From Blastocatellia bacterium (GTDB taxonomy: Bacteria > Acidobacteriota > Blastocatellia > DASRDY01): a DNA stretch of 64,000 bases. The position numbers and the translations under genes were made by a program. Shown one piece after another: positions 2,161 through 60,873 of this stretch. The DNA is taken from contig DASRDY010000285.1 in NCBI GenBank assembly GCA_035652355.1, positions 24,300 through 88,299 on the forward strand, in the 5' to 3' direction. The number at the start of each line of letters is the position of its first letter. Position 1 is the first letter of the stretch. The notes under the pieces were generated by a model. It did not search any database and had not been told where the DNA came from. It worked only from the letters and a program-made list of their open reading frames with translations.

Positions 2161-3435
2161 ATGGCTTCGAATCGGTCGCCGCTGTTCATAATTTTTATAA
2201 CTGTTTTTATTGACTTGATTGGATTTGGAATTGTAATTCCGATCCTGCCGATTTATGCAGAGAAATTCGGCGCAACCCCGCTGACAGTTGGACTGTTGCT
2301 GGCCTCGTTTTCTGTTTGCCAGTTTTTAGCCACTCCGATACTTGGTCGACTTTCGGATCGGTACGGCCGACGGCCGATATTATTTTTCAGCCTGGCCGGT
2401 ACTTCGCTTGCATTTCTGACGATGGGATTCGCCAACGCTTTATGGCTGCTTTTCGTCGCCAGAATCGTGGATGGAATTACAGGCGGCAACATATCTACAG
2501 CGCAGGCGTATATTGCCGATGTCACGACTCCGGAAAATCGCGCAAAAGGATTGGGGATGATAGGAGCCGCATTCGGTCTTGGGTTCATAATCGGTCCGGC
2601 AATCGGCGGCGTGCTGAGTAAATTCGGTCTTCCTGTTCCTTTTCTGTTTGCATCAGCCCTGGCGGCGGCAAATGCGATTCTGCTTTATTTTCGTTTACCG
2701 GAAACAGTCAAACGTGACGGTTCGCCTGCGAAGGCTTCGGCGCGCAGAGGATGGGGGATTGTCGGGATTTCGTTACCAGACACCGGTCTTAAGCTGATCC
2801 TGATCGTTTACTTCGTCGGCACGGTAGCTTTCGCAACGCTGACTGCAACCCTGGCACTTTACACCAGTCACGCAAGGCAATTTCATTACGATGCTACGCA
2901 TAATGGCTACATCTTCACATTCGTGGGAATAATCGGCGCGATCGTTCAAGGAGGTCTGCTGGGACGATTGGTCAAACAATTTGGCGAATCACTGCTGGTA
3001 GTTGTGGGTTTGGTTTCATTAGGCGCAGGTCTCGCGTTTCTCCCTTACTTAACAACTTTGATTGGGCTGTTGGTCGCGCTGGCTCTGATAGCGATTGGCA
3101 ACGGTCTGGTTACGCCGAGCCTGACTGCGCTGGCTTCGAAACGCACTTCGGAAAAGAAACAGGGTGAAATTCTGGGAATAACTCAATCTTTGAACAGCCT
3201 TGCTCGAGTTATTGGGCCGATTGTTGGCAATTTTCTTTTAGGTTTCGGAATAACCGAAGCTGCCGGTTCGGTGAGCGAATCAACCAGCGTCCCTGGTCAG
3301 GCTATGGCATCGCCCTTTGTTATGAGCGCTATTGTGACAGCATTGGCGTTTGCGCTGGCAATCTTTTATTATCTGAAATGGGGAAACAAGAAATTAGTCG
3401 GTTTTGAACGGTCACAACAGCAATCGGAGACATAG
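2161..3435 (+). CDS. MFS transporter (drug/H+ antiporter-like, 12 TM)
   Basis: MFS motif A GRLSDRYGRRPILF lies after TM2 and the protein is hydrophobic throughout. The listed ORF begins at TTG 2155; the first ATG is 2161, so the start is uncertain by 2 codons. Confidence 0.85.
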   Translation: MASNRSPLFIIFITVFIDLIGFGIVIPILPIYAEKFGATPLTVGLLLASFSVCQFLATPILGRLSDRYGRRPILFFSLAGTSLAFLTMGFANALWLLFVARIVDGITGGNISTAQAYIADVTTPENRAKGLGMIGAAFGLGFIIGPAIGGVLSKFGLPVPFLFASALAAANAILLYFRLPETVKRDGSPAKASARRGWGIVGISLPDTGLKLILIVYFVGTVAFATLTATLALYTSHARQFHYDATHNGYIFTFVGIIGAIVQGGLLGRLVKQFGESLLVVVGLVSLGAGLAFLPYLTTLIGLLVALALIAIGNGLVTPSLTALASKRTSEKKQGEILGITQSLNSLARVIGPIVGNFLLGFGITEAAGSVSESTSVPGQAMASPFVMSAIVTALAFALAIFYYLKWGNKKLVGFERSQQQSET

Positions 3436-3437
3436 AA

Positions 3438-3644
3438 ATGAAACGTCAATTTAAAGCCACACTGACAGAAGAGAGCGGTATATTCGTGGCGCAGTGTCTC
3501 GATGTAGATGTCGCCAGTCAGGGTTCGACTGAGGCTGAGGCGCTTGCCAATTTAAAAGAAGCCTTAGAACTGCATTTTGAACCTCCTTACGCTACTGAAT
3601 ATCCAGCCGTAAAAAGTATAGAGGTTGACCTGTATGCCGCTTAA
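3438..3644 (+). CDS. hicB: HicB-family antitoxin-like protein (UPF0150 fold)
   Basis: This 68-aa protein reads FKATLTEESGIFVAQCLDVDVASQGSTEAEALANLKEALELHFE, the typical short HicB N-domain pattern. Its stop overlaps the start of a HicA-like frame by 11 nt. Confidence 0.7.
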   Translation: MKRQFKATLTEESGIFVAQCLDVDVASQGSTEAEALANLKEALELHFEPPYATEYPAVKSIEVDLYAA

Positions 3645-3857
3645 TCCTCTACCCTATCGAGAGGTGAAGCGTAGCCTTGAAGTTGCGGGTTTTTCTTAAG
3701 GTTAGCCAGAAGGGTAGCCATGTGAAGTTCGCGAAAAAAACGGACACAGGAACTCGAACCGCTATTGTTCGAGCCTATGCAGAAATAGCATCAGGAACGA
3801 TCCGAAGCATTATTCGCCCAGGCTGGCATTACTCGGGATGAATGGGAAACCTTATAA
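3634..3857 (+). pseudogene. hicA: HicA-family mRNA-interferase toxin gene disrupted by two frameshifts
   Basis: From ATG 3634, frame 1 gives MPLNPLPYREVKRSLEVAGF and then TAA at 3697. HicA-like sequence continues in frame 2 from the T5 run at 3690-3694 (FLKVSQKGSHVKFAKKTDTGTRTAIVRAYAEIASGTIRSIIR). The family-typical C-terminus QAGITRDEWETL* is in a third frame ending at 3857. Confidence 0.6.
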
Positions 3858-4261
3858 CCACCTGCATATCTCTCCAAAATATTTGCCGGGTTATGTAACG
3901 TTGTCGAGCCGATTTCACATAATTTTCCATAACTGCTTCGTTTCTTTGGCCTCAGCGTAATTGCACCTTGGCTCCAACATTTTACCACGCCTATAATGCC
4001 CCCAGCCTTGGATAGTCTCATCCGACTCCAAGCGCAGTACCAATAGAGTCGAGAGATTCTAATTCACGATTTCTGCCCTTATCAGCGCCGAAAATGTCGG
4101 CGCGCGCGAGCCCAATCACCCGTGGTTTGCGCGAAACAGATTTGTAAAGCGAGAGATAACTTCTACAGCTTTTTGCCCAGGCGTTCCGACGCATCTGCCC
4201 TTAACACAAGGCGAAAAGTTTGGACACAACTGGGCAACCCCACTCTAAAAGAGGGAGATAT

Positions 4262-7200
4262 ATGAGAACTGCAAGGGTACTATTCAAGCCTATAATCTGG
4301 CTGTTATTGGTTGGCGTTGCTGCATTGGCAATGACATTCGGCGCTGATTTGCTGTCTGGCTCAGCAAAGGCCGCCGGTTTCGCTAATAGCGCGTCGTTTA
4401 CTCTGTTCAGTCCGCCGCCACCATTCGTTCGATGCGTGACGACGGGTGCAATCGACCCAAGCTGTAATGATACTCACACTACAATCCAGGGCGCGATCAA
4501 TGCTGCCTTGCCTGGCGATACCATTTTGATTGCGCCGGGCACGTATATTGAGCAAATCACCGTCAACAAGAACCTGACCATTACCACCACCGGACCAGGA
4601 GTTGTTATTCAGTCGCCATCCACTCCGCTGGTTCCCGATGCCGTTGGACAACTTAATATTGTCACGATAACGGGTGGCGTAAATGTCAGTATCAGCAACC
4701 TGGTAGTACTCGGTCCTGGTCCTGGTCCATGCGCAAGCATAAACTCGGGCATATTTGTCAGCGGCAACTCGGTTGCTTCGATCACCGGGCTAATTATTCC
4801 CGAGATTCACGATAACCCATTTGGCGGCTGCCAGAACGGCGTCGGCATCCAGGTCGGAAAACAGTCCGTTGCGCAACTCGGTCACGCCGTCATCACAAAC
4901 ACCGCCGTGAGCAATTACCAGAAGGCGGGCATTGTCGTTGACGGAACAGGATCCGACGCGACCATAACGGGCGATACAATCGACGGCCACGGTAATACGA
5001 CCTTGATCGCTCAAAACGGCATTCAGATCAGCCGCGGAGCGACAGCGATCGTCGATAACAACCTTGTTCAGGGAAATGAATTCGACGGCCCCGGCAGTGG
5101 CAGTGACATTCTAAACGATGTACAGTCGGTCGGTATCCTTCTGTTTAATGCCGGCGATGGAACTGTTATCGAAAACAACAACGTCACCGCTAATGACATC
5201 GGCATTTATGACCTTAACTTAGGCGCAGTGAACATCAACAATAACCACCTGACGATCAACCGGTATGGCGGAATCGTACAGGATCAGGGAACTGGTAACC
5301 TGAATCACAATACTGTCAGCGGTGGACTTCATTCTGTGTTCGTGGCTTCGTTTAGCGGGGCTACCGGCGATTCAATAGCGATCCTGAATGGCAACACACT
5401 CAGTCCGGGTCCTGGCGGAACGGCCCTCGACACTGGTGATGCCGACACAGGAGATGCGTTTGTTCCGTTCTTCCAGAACGTTTTCTGTGCGGCTCCTCCT
5501 GCGGGCCTCGTTAGCTGGTATCCTGGCGATGGAAATGCGACTGACGTTGCCGGTGGACACGATGGCACTTTGGTGGGTGGAGCGACCTTCTCCCCCGCAG
5601 GCGAAGTCGGGCAAGCATTCAACTTTAACGGCATCAACGCGGGCGTCAGCGTTCCCGATACGGCCAGTCTGAATTTTGGAGCAAATTCCGACTTCTCGAT
5701 TGACGCCTGGATCCACATTCCCACGAGCGCCAATCCGACTAAAACGGTTGTCGATATCGTCGATAAGCGCTCATTCAGTCCCAACCCGATGGGCTACTCC
5801 ATGTTCCTGCTGAATGGACAACTGGGTGTTCAGCTTGCGGATGGCGCTACTGTCCACAATTACGTCGGTCCGAGCACCGGTGAGTTGCGCGATGGGCAGT
5901 TCCACTTTGTTGCTGCAACAGTAACCAGGGCTTCCGCCGGAACTTTTGCGGTCAATCTCTACGTTGACGGTGTTTTGAAAGATACGATAACCAGCAATGC
6001 GATCCTCGGTGACCTGACAAATACCGGAGCTCTGCAGATTGCATTCAATCCCGATCCCGGTGTTCCCGCTGCAACGAAATTTGCTCCGGGACTGTTCGAT
6101 GAGATCGAGATTTTCAACCGCGCTCTGAGTTCGGCCGACGTTGCGTCGCTTTTTAATCCGTTGATTGCGGGCAAATGCAAGGTGACCGATGTCGGGCTCA
6201 CCAAAACGCACACAGGTACATTCACGGTCGGACTGACCGGGACATACAACCTGACGGTTACCAATGTCGGAACCCTCAGAGCAACTTCACCTATCACGGT
6301 TTCGGACACACTGCCCGCCGGTATGAGCTTCTTAGCCGTCGGTGCAGGATCTGATCCGGGTTGGCTCTGCTCTGGCTCGACAACCGTTAATTGTACAAAC
6401 AATACACAGTTGCCAGTAAGTGCTTCATTCCCGCTCAACCTTGACGTCACTGTGACGCAGGGCGGTGCAAGAACGAACAATGCCGTTGTTTCAATGTTCG
6501 GCGACAGCAATTCGGGCAATGACAACGCCAGTGACACACTGACGGTGGCAAAGGCAAATACAAACACAGCTCTCGCGTCATCGGTAAATCCGTCTGTCTT
6601 CGGTCAGCCGGTAACATTTACGGCAACCGTGACAGCGACAGGAATTACTCCTGTCGGCAACGTCGAATTCTTTGACGGCTTAACCTCGCTGGGCGTGTTC
6701 CCGACCTCCGGTGGAATTGCATCAGTTACGGTGTCAAACCTGAATGTAGGTTCGCACTCTGTCACTGCGCAATTCACTGATGGCGGCGATTTCAATAACA
6801 GCACCGCCAGCGCGTTAAATCAGGTCGTTAATCCTGCAAATACGAATACTTCACTGGTTTCGTCGGTTAACCCGTCTGTCTTCCAGCAGACAGTGACTTT
6901 CACCGCAACTGTCACAGTAGTACCTCCGGGTGGCGGAACGTTGTCAAACACCGTGACCTTCAGGGACGGCACGACTGTGATTGACGTAGTACCTATTGGT
7001 CCTGGTGGCGTTGCGACGACCACACGGAACTCACTGTCGGTCGGCAGCCATCCGATAACGGCTTCCTATAATGGAGATGGCGCTCATAACGGAAGCCTGT
7101 CCAATACCGTAGTTCAGATAGTGAACAAGGCTAATACCACATTGACGCTGACCTCGTCGGCCAATCCTGGGAATCCGGGCGGCATCGTGATGTTCACAGC

Positions 7201-57060: not shown

Positions 57061-57537
57061 ATGAGCAAGAAAGAGACGAAGCCCTGCGCCAGGAGCAAGG
57101 GACTGGTGGTACAAAAGCTGGAAGGAGAAGTGCTGGTCTATGACACAGAGAAGCAGCAGGCGCACTGCCTCAATGGAACGGCCGCACTGATCTGGGAGCA
57201 GTGTGATGGAACGAGAACAGTGAAGGAACTTGCCGGTCTGCTTCGAGGAGATGTAACAGAGCGAGAGAGGGAAGAGCTGGTCTGGATCGCGCTTGAAGAG
57301 CTAAACAGATCAAATCTGTTGGAAGAGCCGCTGGCACGACCATCAGCCATAAGCGGACTCAGCCGAAGACAGATGCTGAAGGCAGCCGGGGTTGCGGCCA
57401 TGATCGCGGTTCCTGTCGTGAGCACAATAGTAGCACCAAAAGCAGCACAGGCATCGACTTGTCTTCCGACCAGCGCCGGTTGCACGATCAGCGCTCAATG
57501 TTGCAGCGGTATCTGCTCTGGCGGCGCGTGTGCGTAA
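57061..57537 (+). CDS. PqqD-like (RRE-type) domain fused to a Tat-motif hydrophobic segment and a 27-aa six-cysteine C-terminal peptide
   Basis: GGAG lies 5 nt before the ATG. The PqqD pattern is LVVQKLEGEVLVYDTEKQQAHCLNGTAALIWEQCDGTRTVKELAGLL..LEELNRSNLL. Then come SRRQMLKAAGVAAMIAVPVVSTIVAPKAAQA and STCLPTSAGCTISAQCCSGICSGGACA. Confidence 0.7.
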   Translation: MSKKETKPCARSKGLVVQKLEGEVLVYDTEKQQAHCLNGTAALIWEQCDGTRTVKELAGLLRGDVTEREREELVWIALEELNRSNLLEEPLARPSAISGLSRRQMLKAAGVAAMIAVPVVSTIVAPKAAQASTCLPTSAGCTISAQCCSGICSGGACA

Positions 57538-57598: not shown

Positions 57599-57647
57599 CC
57601 TCCTACCAATCTGCGTAACTAACGAACTGCAAATCGCCGAATACCTG

Positions 57648-57989
57648 TTACTGCAACAGCTTCAGCTTTTTAAAAAATAAACCATCATTGGTTGGTCCAA
57701 CCGCAACAGCGGTCATTTCATTATTGAAATCCTCTTCGATAAAGCTCTCACATATCCGTCCATTTGATTCGATCTGATTTCCCCAGAAATCAAGTTCTTT
57801 TTCATCCTTGACGCCCAGAAGAACCAGTGTTCTATCATCTTCAGCCCACTTTTGAATCTAAGGATCGTCGCCATGACGCGAAATCAGATTTGCCAGCGCG
57901 TGACACGCCTGAACCGCTCTTTGGGCCCAGCATAAATCCTGGCGAACCAGGATATACACTTTCAATTTGCCGCAAGATTTTTCAGCCAT
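57648..57989 (-). CDS. PTH2-family (peptidyl-tRNA hydrolase 2-like) gene, 113 codons, with one in-frame TAG at codon 44 (57858..57860). It is either read through by the adjacent tRNA(CUA) or a nonsense pseudogene.
   Basis: My hand translation is MAEKSCGKLKVYILVRQDLCWAQRAVQACHALANLISRHGDDP[TAG]IQKWAEDDRTLVLLGVKDEKELDFWGNQIESNGRICESFIEEDFNNEMTAVAVGPTNDGLFFKKLKLLQ*. Family-like sequence is present on both sides of the TAG. ATG 57989 overlaps the upstream ORF's stop (ATGGCTGA). The gene is missing from the ORF track because neither half reaches 60 aa from a start codon. Confidence 0.6.
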
Positions 57990-58515
57990 TTTCTTCCTCC
58001 TTTAACGTCTTGCGGCTCGCCAGCGACGATTCGATGTGAGCCAGCTTTTCCGATCGATTTTTTAACCTGTTATCTATTTTCTTCAGATAACGGTAAGCCT
58101 GAATACAAATATATCGCTCTTTGCCTCTTCTCGCGTGGTGGCATAACCCTCCGTCTCGGATATTCCTTTGAAGCGCTTTGAATTCCGGAATATGCTCATC
58201 ATTCAATTTCAAAATAATCCGCGCGGTTAGCAGCACGGATGCGCGCCGCTTTGCCGAGATGTAGAGTTTCCAATCCGGATGTTTCTGAGACATATAACCG
58301 GTCCGCTTTTCGTAGCTCACCTTTGCCAGCTTCCACGCGGATACGGCCGTTGCTCTACGAGAGTTTCGGTTTACGAACGACTTTCCGTCAGGAGATACGT
58401 AGGCGATGTTTTCAAATGTTTCTCTGACTAAATTCTGATTTTTCAGCCTGTGAATCTCTTCCGATTGTTTACTGACGTAATATTGAAAAACCTGTGTTAT
58501 TGATACCATTGTCAT
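57982..58515 (-). CDS. Hypothetical 177-aa Lys/Arg-rich protein
   Basis: AAAGGA RBS lies before ATG 58515. No family is recognised. The gene is translationally coupled to the PTH2-like frame. Confidence 0.6.
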   Translation of the reverse strand: MTMVSITQVFQYYVSKQSEEIHRLKNQNLVRETFENIAYVSPDGKSFVNRNSRRATAVSAWKLAKVSYEKRTGYMSQKHPDWKLYISAKRRASVLLTARIILKLNDEHIPEFKALQRNIRDGGLCHHARRGKERYICIQAYRYLKKIDNRLKNRSEKLAHIESSLASRKTLKEEENG

Positions 58516-58786
58516 GTCCTTTCATATCAATTCGGCCAATTACTTACCTGATTTGTCGATCAGGCCGTTAAAGACACGGCAATGGCGGTCAAGGTGGACG
58601 AGCTACCTACAACATATCTTCCTCCAATGGGATTGAGTTAACCGCTGGACGGACACCACTGACGATCAATCCTGAGGCGCACAGGATTGCGACGGGACAA
58701 TTAAACTTCTGAAGGTAAAATCGAACTCGATTGTCAGCGGGTATGCGAGTTGGGATCTACGTGAAGACCATAATAATAATTCCAGA

Positions 58787-58858
58787 TGCGCCCTGTGGGA
58801 TTCGAACCCACACCCTGGCGCTTTAGAGACGCTTGCTCAACCATTGAGCTTAGGGCGC
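58787..58858 (-). tRNA. tRNA with anticodon CUA (amber/UAG-reading suppressor type); amino-acid identity undetermined
   Basis: The reverse complement is GCGCCCU-AA-GCUC-AAUGGUU-GAGC-A-AGCGU-CUCUAAA-GCGCC-AGGGU-GUGGG-UUCGAAU-CCCAC-AGGGCGC-A. All four stems pair, with one A.C and one U.G in the anticodon stem. G18G19, U33, A37, the T-loop UUCGAAU and the G53-C61 pair are present, and the 5-nt variable loop makes it class I. Atypical features are A8 and U21. CCA is not encoded. Confidence 0.8.
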
Positions 58859-58869
58859 TAAACAAAAAG

Positions 58870-58899
58870 AGTATAAGCGACAAATCCGGCCGGAATCAA
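58870..58899 (-). promoter_or_regulatory. Sigma70-like promoter for the CUA tRNA
   Basis: On the minus strand, TTGATT (58899-94) - 18 nt - TATACT (58875-70). The -10 element ends 11 nt before tRNA position 1. Confidence 0.5.
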
Positions 58900-58983
58900 G
58901 GAAATGATTTTCGTCAGGTTCGGCGGGCAAACGAAAGTCAGGCAGACCGGGAACAGCAGCTGTGATGTGACGTCACCTGGCTG

Positions 58984-59184
58984 TTATATCTGATGAGCGT
59001 AAATCTGCTCGTCGTTCAATATATTTGCCTGCCTAAAATAATTGAAGCATTCGCGAAGACTCCATTCAGGATTGTTATCCTGTATCTTCGCAACCTGGCT
59101 CAGTTCATTCCGTTTGTGCTCAGTCAGGGCTTCGAATGAATCGAATGTTGATTCGCAAAGGTGACAACGATATATGTAAGCCAT
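58984..59184 (-). CDS. Hypothetical 66-aa protein with a CxxC...H zinc-ribbon-like N-terminus
   Basis: A strong AGGAGG RBS lies 6 nt before the ATG. The N-terminus is YRCHLCESTFDSFEALTEHKR. No family is recognised. Confidence 0.55.
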   Translation of the reverse strand: MAYIYRCHLCESTFDSFEALTEHKRNELSQVAKIQDNNPEWSLRECFNYFRQANILNDEQIYAHQI

Positions 59185-59290
59185 ATCCAGCCTCCTGGCT
59201 CCGACAATCTCTGTATAAGAGAAATGCTCTAATCCCTGTCTTTTTTATCGTCGTTAGCCGGGGTGGCCTTTAAGAAAATAGGGGCCTAAA

Positions 59291-60346
59291 TCAAGGGACG
59301 CTGGTTAATTGATTTTGCTGGTGTTGCCGTATTTGCTGACGATATTGGGCAACCGCGCGGTTGTGTTCATCGATTGACCTCGAAAAGTGATGGCTGCCGT
59401 CGACGCCGGTCGCCACAAAATAGTAAAAGTCGGTCTCTGCAGGGTATAGAGCGGCTTCGAGTGACCGTCGTCCGGGCGAGGCTATCGGACCTGGTGGCAA
59501 TCCCTGAGTAACGTAAGTATTGTACGGAGATCTCCGAGTGCGATGACGCGGATTATTCACATTGCCATCGTAATCATTTGCCAGAATAGCCGCATAAATA
59601 AACGTCGGATCGGTTTCAAGGAGCATATTCTTTTTAAGTCGATTATAGAAGACAGAGGCAATTACCGGTCGCTCATCAGGGTTTTTAGCTTCCTTTTCGA
59701 TGATTGATGCCATGGTGACGATGTTGTGAATCGAGCTAATCTGATTCGCTCTTTCCCGCCATCCGACATTAAATACAGATCGGAATCTTTCGGTCATCTG
59801 CTTTACCAGTTCCTGTGGAGTGGTCTCGTAAGTATAAGTATAAGTATCTGGAAACAAATAGCCTTCCAGATCGCGAGCTTCGGGATCCAGATCCGAAATT
59901 AATGAAGGATCTGCTGTAAGCGCCAGGAATGTCGTCGCATCCGCCTTTCCCGTCTCTGCCAGGCGGTTAGCAATATCGAATCTATTATAACCTTCCGGGA
60001 TGGTAACGTGGTATTGGACCACTTCTCCTCGCTCCATTTTACCTATAGCTTCGATGGGAGTTATGGGCGACTGGAAGCGATATTCTCCGGCTTTGATAGC
60101 TTTGCCGTAATGTAATTTAGTATATAAAAGAACTGGAACTCGGGATGATATGATACCAGCATCATATAGGCGGTCAATTATTGCGCGAGTCCCCAAACCA
60201 CGGTCGATAATAACGCTTTTGTCTGCTGGCTGATGCACAAGAGGTGTGCGCAGTTCGTAAAAAGTCCAGACAGCGAATGACGCGATCAATACTACCAGTA
60301 TTCCTAACCCTGCAAGCAGTTTCTTCCTGTTGCGTCTTCTTCGCAT
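59291..60346 (-). CDS. mltG: Endolytic murein transglycosylase MltG (YceG-like)
   Basis: An N-terminal TM segment (LLAGLGILVVLIASFAVWTF) is followed by the YceG pattern (IPEGYNRFDIANRL, EGYLFPDTYTY, ASIIEKEA, NTYVTQGLPPGPIASPG). The start is placed at Met86 of the listed ORF, because the longer ORF overlaps ruvX by 157 nt. The start remains uncertain. Confidence 0.8.
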   Translation of the reverse strand: MRRRRNRKKLLAGLGILVVLIASFAVWTFYELRTPLVHQPADKSVIIDRGLGTRAIIDRLYDAGIISSRVPVLLYTKLHYGKAIKAGEYRFQSPITPIEAIGKMERGEVVQYHVTIPEGYNRFDIANRLAETGKADATTFLALTADPSLISDLDPEARDLEGYLFPDTYTYTYETTPQELVKQMTERFRSVFNVGWRERANQISSIHNIVTMASIIEKEAKNPDERPVIASVFYNRLKKNMLLETDPTFIYAAILANDYDGNVNNPRHRTRRSPYNTYVTQGLPPGPIASPGRRSLEAALYPAETDFYYFVATGVDGSHHFSRSIDEHNRAVAQYRQQIRQHQQNQLTSVP

Positions 60347-60444
60347 TGTGTTGACGGGCACTCCCAATATAGTTTCCGGCGCCGATGCGCCGGCAGGTGG
60401 ACCATTCCTCTTTTCATCGCCCTCTCCTGAGCTCTTGTTCGGTT

Positions 60445-60873
60445 CTATGTCCGATTCTGAAGACGGTCTTGCCTGGACAAATAATCTTCTAGCAGGATCA
60501 CCGCCGCCCATTCGTCCGACCTGGCCTTTCGCTCGTCGCGAGTATAGCCGCGTTCGAGCAGTATCTGGTCCGCTTCGCGCGATGTCAGTCGTTCGTCGCA
60601 AAGCTCGATCGGTACATCAACCAGCGCCCGAAGCCCGTCGGCAAATTCGCGAACGCGTCTGACCGCTGGTCCTTCGCTTCCGTCCATATTCAGCGGTAAT
60701 CCTATAACGATCTGTCTGGCGCCAAGTTCCTTTGAAAGCTCCGCAGCCCGGTGCAAAGCTTCTGACCGGTTTCGTCCGCCGATAGTCTCGACGGGTCGAA
60801 CGGTGATGCCCATCTCGTCACAAACGGCTACGCCCGTGCGTCTCGTCCCGCAGTCCAGCGCCATCACTCGCAT
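60445..60873 (-). CDS. ruvX: Holliday-junction resolvase-like / pre-16S rRNA nuclease RuvX (YqgF)
   Basis: MRVMALDCGTRRTGVAVCD and DERLTS motifs are present in a 142-aa protein. It sits next to mltG, as in many bacteria. Confidence 0.85.
   Translation of the reverse strand: MRVMALDCGTRRTGVAVCDEMGITVRPVETIGGRNRSEALHRAAELSKELGARQIVIGLPLNMDGSEGPAVRRVREFADGLRALVDVPIELCDERLTSREADQILLERGYTRDERKARSDEWAAVILLEDYLSRQDRLQNRT

Follow-up and report, generated by a model that had tools for sequence, protein, structure and literature searches.

A candidate amber-suppression operon with UAG-containing leaders and a UAG-interrupted PTH2-like gene in Acidobacteria

Why should a bacterium that ends many of its genes in TAG keep a tRNA that reads UAG, and keep it beside a gene interrupted by that very codon? 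The question is raised by positions 57600-59290 of a 64,000-nucleotide (nt) stretch of DNA from a Blastocatellia bacterium (GCA_035652355.1, contig DASRDY010000285.1, positions 24,300 to 88,299; the whole stretch is called the window here). A preliminary description had recognised four elements there, all on the minus strand, namely a zinc-finger open reading frame (ORF), a tRNA with the anticodon CUA, an ORF for a basic protein (designated X) and a TAG-containing frame related to PTH2 hydrolases. All four are present and real, but two leader ORFs containing UAG and a predicted RNA helix that would sequester the ribosome-binding site (RBS) of X had been overlooked in the 270 nt that separate the tRNA from X. 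With somewhat better than even confidence, drawn from sequence comparison, the segment is read here as a self-contained, conserved amber-suppression operon, in which X and the putative hydrolase would be the response to suppression; read-through of UAG probably switches on both. The parts on which this reading depends are the following, in order of transcription.

58870..58899, minus strand: sigma-70-like promoter (TTGATT, 18 nt, TATACT) found by consensus scan, ending 12 nt upstream of the tRNA 5′ end
58787-58858, minus strand: tRNA with anticodon CUA (reads UAG), found by ARAGORN; 63.5 bits against the Rfam tRNA model (threshold 29)
58757..58771, minus strand: mini-ORF 1, ATG GTC TTC ACG TAG (M-V-F-T-UAG), 15 nt after the tRNA 3′ end
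58589..58771, minus strand: read-through frame of mini-ORF 1, 60 codons with two in-frame TAGs and no other stop, ending at the stop of mini-ORF 2
58589..58615, minus strand: mini-ORF 2 (the leader), ATG TTG TAG GTA GCT CGT CCA CCT TGA (M-L-UAG-V-A-R-P-P-stop), preceded by GGAGG
58570..58591, minus strand: 5′ arm of the predicted helix, beginning at the leader stop codon (RNAfold -28.5 kcal/mol, z = -3.1)
58501..58521, minus strand: 3′ arm of the predicted helix, covering the RBS (AAAGGA) and AUG of X
57982..58509, minus strand: protein X, 175 amino acids, isoelectric point (pI) 10.1, no match in Pfam, PHROGs, PADLOC or PDB
57648..57989, minus strand: PTH2-like frame with an in-frame TAG at 57858-57860 (..GDDP-UAG-IQKW..), its start overlapping the X stop by 8 nt (ATGGCTGA)

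DNA from ten lineages was compared, the window locus (W) included, with X proteins ranging from 72% identity down to a profile E-value of 4e-12. The other bacterial loci are numbered L003-L016 and three phage contigs L017-L019, while L021, L022 and L023 are the phages CBB, RsoM2USA and ME3 respectively. The two leader ORFs were exposed as conserved islands by aligning the tRNA-to-X spacer. Mini-ORF 2 reads M-L-UAG-x-x-R-(P/S/A)-P-stop in 10 of 10 bacterial lineages, possesses its own GGAG-type RBS 4-9 nt upstream and always stops at TGA or TAA; the leader is also found in the three phage contigs. Its codons vary synonymously (Leu as TTG, TTA, CTG, CTC or CTA; Arg as CGT, CGC or AGA; Pro as CCA, CCG, CCT or CCC), and such variation past the leader UAG points to selection on the peptide encoded after it, which requires ribosomes to read through. 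Mini-ORF 1, starting 8-73 nt past the tRNA depending on lineage, occurs in each of the eight lineages for which this region is available, as MVFT, MAFT, MTTFT, MSGFL, MVFR or ..SSRFT followed by TAG, a pattern of F-[T/L/R]-UAG in which the Phe at -2 is invariant. In 7 of 8 lineages, reading through its TAG gives a frame that stays open over the 85-213-nt spacer; in 5 of 8 this frame is shared with mini-ORF 2. A long conserved peptide between the two mini-ORFs was considered and rejected: open though the frame remains, the spacer varies in both sequence and length. The spacer is C-rich and G-poor (C/G ratio 1.2-2.2) in 7 of 8 lineages; the exception, L015, has a strong intrinsic terminator hairpin there instead. 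From the variation between lineages we infer that the codons following each UAG are translated. A proline codon preceding a stop is known to slow termination, and TnaC, which ends R23-P24-stop, arrests at termination (PMC3082878, PMC8450073). According to one of these papers, termination is also hindered by a penultimate Phe, an effect with which mini-ORF 1 would fit.

The helix is predicted at 9 of 9 bacterial loci, where 12-20 nt beginning 0-7 nt past the first base of the leader stop pair with the RBS and AUG of X, leaving 9-17 of the 17 nt of this RBS/AUG region paired (z-scores -2.7 to -4.2). In W itself 14 of these 17 nt are paired with positions +7 to +21 past the leader stop (RNAfold). 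When arms were exchanged between loci in a duplex test, cognate arms gave a mean of -19.1 kcal/mol against -12.3 for non-cognate ones, and the cognate arm was ranked first in every divergent lineage (W, L010, L011, L013, L014 and L015); the arms thus covary, which argues for compensatory evolution. The leader UAG lies 15 nt upstream of the leader stop. This spacing suggests that a ribosome released at the UAG would stay short of the helix, while one that reads through would come to sit on its 5′ arm. Two of the features by which a leader-peptide attenuator is recognised are found here: a short RBS-bearing ORF with a conserved peptide, and an arm of a predicted RBS-hiding helix within reach of a paused ribosome.

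Downstream of X, the PTH2-like frame matches the Pfam family PTH2 (PF01981, E-value 2.4e-10, 41.1 bits against a cut-off of 23) over residues 9-104 of 113, so that the match extends past the TAG in either direction; a profile built from five such proteins matches Methanocaldococcus jannaschii Pth2 (2zv3, E-value 5e-7). Scores against the NCBIfam equivalogs are 29.8 where the cut-off is 82 and 28 where it is 126; an acidic residue is kept, in an E-x-D. By these comparisons it is a divergent PTH2-fold protein and a putative hydrolase. Its ATG overlaps the stop of X, which indicates translational coupling. The gene overlaps X in seven lineages and in six of these (W, L003, L012, L013, L014 and L015) has the TAG at the same site, in the context [D/E/N/G]DP-UAG-[I/L/V]xxW; this site aligns with a residue that is variable among Pth2 relatives. 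Codons that differ are synonymous in 32 and non-synonymous in 38 cases between W and L003, and in 30 and 15 between L003 and L012, with both halves of the gene contributing. Judged on this pattern, the PTH2-like gene is no pseudogene, and the functional pairing of tRNA-CUA with a TAG-containing frame that the preliminary description had proposed gains support. The read-through protein has no homologues in an index of 5.8 billion proteins, probably because gene callers stop at the TAG; the phage genes described below are likewise truncated or unannotated.

How these parts might work together can be set out in order. The promoter upstream of the tRNA would give one transcript with tRNA-CUA, both leaders, X and the PTH2-like gene, as their spacing and a conserved -10 box suggest. 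The tRNA-CUA would read UAG. A ribosome on mini-ORF 2 would either be released at the UAG by release factor 1 (RF1) or, with the suppressor tRNA, translate five codons more and pause on the slow Arg-Pro-Pro-stop. Paused there, it would lie on the 5′ arm and open the helix hiding the RBS and AUG of X; both pausing and melting are proposed from the geometry of the leader. X and the translationally coupled hydrolase would then be made only while UAG is decoded as sense, and in the clade of the window the hydrolase would require one further read-through of UAG. Mini-ORF 1 may serve as an upstream checkpoint whose read-through frame would carry ribosomes over the C-rich spacer, which in L015 holds the intrinsic terminator. 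As to the products, the PTH2-like enzyme may act on acylated suppressor tRNA or on peptidyl-tRNA and X may bind nucleic acid, and together they could cap or clean up UAG read-through in a host with a third of its genes ending in UAG. Comparison among lineages supports the circuit itself well, in that the linked tRNA would read UAG and X and the PTH2-like protein would depend on it; for the proteins, a feedback or clean-up role is favoured because both would be made in proportion to suppression.

Several observations weigh against this scheme. The footprint of the paused ribosome would reach the base of the helix alone, making its opening plausible and no firmer than that. In L016 the PTH2-like site is TCG (Ser), so that the TAG is lost and the gene is called intact, and clade B (L007, L010) has no PTH2-like gene nearby, a TatD gene following X there. 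The PTH2-like proteins have an invariant Gln where, at the aligned position, M. jannaschii Pth2 has a Lys in its GKGK loop, a residue which is presumably catalytic. With the tRNA, the one in the window has A8 in place of the usual U8, the tRNA bodies vary across lineages and comprise at least three unrelated types, and no tRNA was found within 1 kb upstream of X in L011. Nor could the amino acid carried be assigned by similarity, as blastn against E. coli and phage tRNAs returned mixed isotypes (Arg, Met, Ile, Glu, Asn, Thr, Lys and Sup).

The preliminary description had taken the segment to be a horizontally acquired cassette of low G+C, now without its mobility genes. Close to this view, it could be a relic, that is, a recent foreign fragment in which the PTH2-like frame is a nonsense pseudogene and the tRNA-CUA a coincidence. 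Its composition, the lack of database homologues for the read-through protein and the lack of mobility genes would fit. The comparative data contradict it, though, and leave it hardly credible: six lineages have the TAG in exactly the same position, flanked on either side by many synonymous differences, two further in-frame UAGs are conserved in the leaders, and L003 has the same gene order as the window (ruvX-mltG-zinc finger-tRNA-CUA-X-PTH2-like). Between these two loci identity is 67.5% for MltG, 75.9% for RuvX, 65.2% for the zinc-finger protein, 61.0% for X and 64% for the PTH2-like protein, which indicates that the cassette diverged together with its flanks. Presence in relatives, which had been named as an observation that would speak against acquisition, is thus found for L003, and recent insertion does not hold. 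Neither does decay, given the conservation and signs of selection in the TAG, the leaders and the RNA helix. In other lineages the module stands in differing contexts with a G+C that tracks the host, and in L016 a tyrosine integrase lies ~0.9 kb upstream of it. The module appears to move over long timescales, yet to have been inherited vertically in the lineage of the window.

The low G+C itself was confirmed. At 0.458, the cassette is below the window mean of 0.511 (standard deviation 0.024 among equal-sized windows, 0.45% of which are as low), but the dip is modest and runs on into mltG (0.47-0.49), equally low patches are present at 20.9-22 kb and 43-44.3 kb, and the giant gene that had been used for comparison is itself above average (0.54). 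The reported lack of integrase, transposase and flanking repeats was upheld, with no direct or inverted repeats of >=14 nt found around the cassette and no integrase or transposase match to Pfam among five ORFs scanned in 56.5-60.5 kb.

Stop-codon usage is also as would be expected of a segment in which UAG may be read as sense. In the window, 14 of 39 long ORFs (36%) end in TAG. Across the loci, the genuine stop codons that end leader 2, X and the PTH2-like gene (n=22) are 16 TGA, 6 TAA and no TAG, which bears out the contrast drawn earlier between a TAG-avoiding cassette and TAG-using flanking genes; the terminators TAA, TGA and TAA given for its three ORFs are indeed true stop codons. Genome-wide recoding of the code 15 kind was considered and rejected on the same count of TAG-ended ORFs and because, besides the PTH2-like gene, no other convincing TAG-split gene was seen in the 64-kb window.

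As regards the tRNA, the gene adjoins X in W, L003, L007, L010, L013 and L014, where it is upstream, and in L016, where it is downstream of the operon; the L012 sequence is too short for its presence to be judged. Stem pairing is preserved across lineages through changes on both or either side (G1-C72 to C1-G72, A27/C43 to A27-U43, U31/G39 to U31-A39). The X-linked tRNA of L015 can be drawn with either UCU or CUA: ARAGORN calls it Arg-UCU (5449-5521), and shifting the anticodon stem by one nucleotide gives a CUA tRNA with more paired positions. The L015 neighbourhood is phage-like, with an NAD-dependent ligase, HTH_17, HD_4 and many small ORFs. Two of the tRNA-CUA genes are non-canonical, that of L014 (5611-5686) having a D loop without GG and a UGAGAAU T loop and that of L016 (6445-6518) a class-II-like D arm and three good T-stem pairs only.

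The ARAGORN label of the window tRNA, tRNA-Pyl, is given on the anticodon alone. Along with the linkage of the tRNA to an uncharacterised protein, this label is what could suggest a pyrrolysine-type system, where tRNA-CUA would carry a special 21st amino acid made or attached with the help of X. In tRNAPyl the D-loop GG and the T-psi-C sequence are absent. It has, moreover, a 3-nt variable loop, a 6-bp (base pair) anticodon stem and G73 (PMC7609411). The tRNA in the window is instead a canonical 7/5 cloverleaf with a 5-nt variable loop, a 5-bp anticodon stem, a D-loop GG, a TTCGAAT T loop and A73 (CCA is not encoded), and identity with tRNAPyl was rejected on these grounds. The non-canonical allo-tRNA/selC-like tRNAs have a long variable arm. 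Those of the Acidobacteria possess a 12-bp acceptor domain in an 8/4 or 9/3 arrangement (PMC7609411), and membership of this class was likewise rejected from the 7/5 arrangement and 5-nt variable loop. No pylS- or pylBCD-type synthetase-like gene is present in the loci with ORFs read or Pfam calls, the remainder of the genomes lying outside the search; the companions of the tRNA in these loci are X plus a PTH2-like or TatD gene and nothing else. A pyrrolysine-type system is accordingly contradicted and extremely improbable, since the tRNAPyl hallmarks are missing (PMC7609411), unrelated tRNA bodies serve the same module, the UAG sites are at variable positions with one replaced by Ser (TCG) in L016, no synthetase was seen in ten loci, and X is a 175-amino-acid basic protein with few polar residues conserved in its family. 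In E. coli terms, A73 and a pair other than C31-G39 give a hint of Lys acceptance, which is a lead only (PMC1483225).

Clade B locus L007 has genes for Macro, HD and PTP-type phosphatase proteins (3379-5128) a few hundred nt upstream of the tRNA-CUA module. The set recalls RNA-end or ADP-ribose-phosphate processing; its position may be coincidence.

The module is also partly represented in phages. Searched for at the DNA level, the leader motif (GGAG/AGGA, 3-10 nt, ATG YTN TAG N6 MGN CCN CCN TRA) matched three IMG/VR contigs of 126-379 kb, and a control pattern with one extra codon matched none. In each of them a tRNA-CUA and a PTH2-like gene lie no more than ~2 kb from the leader. In L018 and L019 the same helix is predicted, joining the sequence just past the leader stop to the RBS and AUG of the gene that follows (z -5.6 and -5.2); in both contigs this gene encodes a small protein different from X. 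Codon 3 is an in-frame TAG in the PTH2-like genes of L017 and L018. In the 379-kb contig L018 (4622-4979), a transfer-messenger RNA (tmRNA; tag AENNFAFAA) adjoins two tRNA-CUA genes, two tRNA-Lys genes and the UAG leader. In L017, consecutive ORFs (ending, for example, at 455, 661, 1559, 1873, 9053 and 9328) encode ..ELGGAL, ..LSGAL or ..VEGAL before the stop, probably a conserved intergenic RBS motif read as protein. The phage-type PTH2-like gene was found in 35 phage records in all (tblastn). Three cultured jumbo phages are given here.

CBB (L021), 286108-286341: PTH2-like start M-A-Q-UAG; annotated in truncated form as CBB_406; tRNA-CUA 3.7 kb away
ME3 (L023), 166601-166900: PTH2-like start M-T-UAG; annotated as ME3_195 with its start misplaced past the UAG; tRNA-CUA 450 nt upstream
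RsoM2USA (L022), about 68877-69220: PTH2-like start ATG TTG TAG, as in the leader; unannotated; no tRNA-CUA in the 12 kb examined

Gene callers stop at the in-frame TAG at codon 3-4, which explains why the public records show these genes cut short, not at all or with the wrong start. UAG-gated PTH2-like hydrolases and UAG-containing leader ORFs thus appear to be systematically missed or truncated by annotation, CBB_406 and the RsoM2USA gene being examples, and the CBB phage paper mentions neither a UAG-sensing leader nor a gated PTH2-like gene. UAG gating of PTH2-like genes has, on present sequences, arisen at two positions, with a suppressor tRNA nearby in the bacterial lineages and in most of the phages examined. 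The module is absent from the suppressor-tRNA region of XacN1. The link to phages or plasmids that had been suggested for the cassette therefore stands in part: phage contigs have the leader, tRNA-CUA and PTH2-like gene and L016 has its integrase, but X itself found no match in the phage and plasmid collections (tblastn) or in IMG/VR.

Such a distribution could also be that of a code switch brought in by a phage or mobile element, with positive feedback, where X would antagonise RF1 or boost suppression, so that a little read-through would bring on more until UAG is sense throughout the cell and UAG-gated cargo is expressed. Both phage 'code change modules' and in-frame stops that gate late genes have been put forward (bioRxiv 10.1101/2021.08.26.457843), a related device is present in jumbo phages, and the L016 integrase adjoins the module. 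A switch of this kind is nevertheless decidedly unlikely, for no other convincing TAG-interrupted gene was seen in the 64-kb window and the sampled phage regions are not globally recoded, the module of the window is chromosomal, vertically inherited and beside housekeeping genes, and runaway suppression would be costly with 36% of genes ending in TAG.

Protein X could be read from 57982-58515 as its longest ORF (177 amino acids), but homologues and the RBS place its start probably at the second ATG, 58509 (175 amino acids). Eleven close protein clusters were found. A profile of nine of their sequences extends the family to 88 clusters at 50% identity among 1.84 billion representatives, although this broader alignment is too divergent for the locus finder; the eleven clusters with members looked up are all named 'hypothetical protein', and are from Acidobacteriota where a taxon is given. 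Family members are 72-265 amino acids long (mostly 140-200) and strongly basic (median pI 9.9, with 97% of members above 9), and few polar residues are conserved family-wide. We infer that X binds nucleic acid, be it tRNA, promoter or ribosome. I found no description of the family in open-access papers or bioRxiv, and within that scope it appears to be new.

In a scan that covered X only, none of 30 family members matched PADLOC models. This bears on the possibility of a toxin-like or abortive-infection device, according to which a harmful PTH2-like protein (through general tRNA deacylation) would be locked by UAG and freed when phage suppressor tRNAs raise read-through. Phages bearing tRNA-CUA do exist and multi-layer gating suggests a product that is off by default. 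Apart from the missing PADLOC match, however, the constitutive-looking tRNA-CUA of the module would unlock the PTH2-like protein without any phage, and phages themselves carry the gated gene, so that this is a slim possibility, slightly slimmer than the code switch.

Another reading of the same parts is back-up termination or rescue upon RF1 failure, loss of RF1 activity being the signal: the tRNA-CUA, a weak competitor, would read the leader UAG once RF1 runs short, and the induced X and PTH2-like protein would release or recycle ribosomes and peptidyl-tRNAs that are stuck at UAG or run past it. A parallel would be ArfA, whose synthesis depends on failure of tmRNA. In the leader, X and PTH2-like ORFs every stop is UGA or UAA, readable by RF2, the PTH2 fold is that of a peptidyl-tRNA hydrolase, a basic X could bind the ribosome, and in phage L018 the tmRNA lies beside the tRNA-CUA genes and the module. 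Yet nothing ties X to the ribosome or to RF1, TAG-stop avoidance is expected under any active-suppressor model, and it is left unexplained why such a sensor would carry its own tRNA in the operon; the idea is unlikely, although the best placed of the rivals. Returning to the amber-suppression operon, it can be extended tentatively to a homeostat for a facultative sense codon, common to Acidobacteria and jumbo phages, in which arrest leaders would gauge how often UAG is decoded as sense and effectors made in proportion would act back on the suppressor tRNA or on termination. This extension is possible rather than probable; if true, cells for which UAG is still a stop would have a dedicated control over its partial reassignment.

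Around the operon, the following ORF shares the segment.

58984..59184, minus strand: 66-amino-acid C2H2 zinc-finger ORF with an AGGAGG RBS and a match to PF13912

This match (E-value 4e-5, 23.9 bits) is slightly below the curated Pfam cut-off of 25. The copy in L003 is in the same place (65.2% identity), a single further homologue was found among 5.8 billion proteins, and the ORF accompanies the module in the Blastocatellia clade only. With the promoter, the scan gave 3 hits in total against 2.5 in shuffled sequence, the weight lying on its position and conservation: a TATACT, TATATT or TATAGT box is also present a few to ~18 nt upstream of the tRNA in L003, L007, L010 and L013. No long unexplained ORF was seen in the ORF list for 56.5-60.5 kb. 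Directly after the 3253-amino-acid repeat protein is a 158-amino-acid ORF (57061-57537, plus strand) with a PqqD/RRE-like domain (PF05402, E-value 5e-8), a TAT-signal-like motif and a Cys-rich C-terminus (..CTISAQCCSGICSGGACA) with weak matches to conotoxin/UPF0506; the ORF, absent from the relative L003, may join a peptide-recognition domain to a knottin-like peptide. On the other side, ruvX (60445-60873, minus strand) terminates in TAG, and the longest mltG ORF (59291-60601, minus strand, TTG start at 60601) overlaps it by ~150 nt, where the public gene call on the identical contig has a later mltG start giving 351 amino acids. Sub-threshold Rfam matches to snoR44_J54 (24.9 bits, 59187-59261, minus strand) and Plastid-ycf2 (58786-58858, plus strand, antisense to the tRNA) are regarded as chance.

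Where suppressor tRNAs occur naturally in standard-code bacteria, they are mostly seen as oddities or as tools of phages; the module would offer a concrete circuit for regulating one, with decoding of a stop codon as its signal. Its logic is conserved over the Acidobacteria and partly reused in giant phages, some of which are culturable. In tying a PTH2-family enzyme and a new protein family to amber suppression, it would also provide a route to their functions.

Open-access papers and bioRxiv yielded no account of a natural operon sensing amber suppression by way of UAG-containing arrest leaders, or of UAG-gated PTH2-like genes, but the parts (suppressor tRNA, arrest leader, PTH2 fold) are of known kinds. 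With the erm and cat leaders, the downstream RBS is hidden in a helix, which is melted by a ribosome pausing at a defined site. The module is alike in having a short RBS-bearing upstream ORF and a helix predicted to hide a downstream RBS; it differs in that the inducer would be decoding of UAG by a tRNA of the same operon instead of an antibiotic, with the proposed pause at termination on R-P-P-stop. The prfB gene senses UGA and RF2 and responds by +1 frameshifting inside the RF2 gene. There too, an early in-frame stop gauges termination capacity and sets expression, whereas the module would sense UAG, through the balance of suppressor tRNA and RF1, and control other proteins. The TnaC leader ends in Arg-Pro-stop and is followed by a C-rich region, where the ribosome can block transcription termination (PMC8450073). 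Its counterparts here are the R-P-P-stop of the leader and the C>G spacer between mini-ORF 1 and mini-ORF 2, while the differences are a leader of 8 residues in place of 24, UAG read-through in place of a bound ligand and the downstream RBS-sequestering helix. Relative to archaeal and eukaryotic Pth2 (PF01981; PDB 2zv3), the module protein is of the same fold family with a Pfam score above the curated cut-off, but its GKGK-equivalent loop is shortened, E-x-D replaces the DAGxT segment and the gene bears an in-frame UAG.

Recoding in phages (Borges et al., bioRxiv 10.1101/2021.08.26.457843) likewise involves suppressor tRNAs, carried by phages of standard-code hosts, and in-frame stops that act as post-transcriptional gates. 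The module is unlike it in being without genome-wide recoding (in the window and the sampled phage regions), an aminoacyl-tRNA synthetase or a release factor; that paper mentions no UAG-sensing leader or gated PTH2-like gene, and the term 'peptidyl-tRNA hydrolase' does not occur in it. Finally, synthetic amber AND gates have been built whose output needs both an mRNA and a suppressor tRNA (PMC1964800; PMC11669171), and the output of the module would be conditional on the same two components. Those gates are engineered, whereas the module is natural and conserved, with its own tRNA and an added attenuator; it would be a natural counterpart to such synthetic amber-suppressor logic and may represent an intermediate stage towards stop-codon reassignment.

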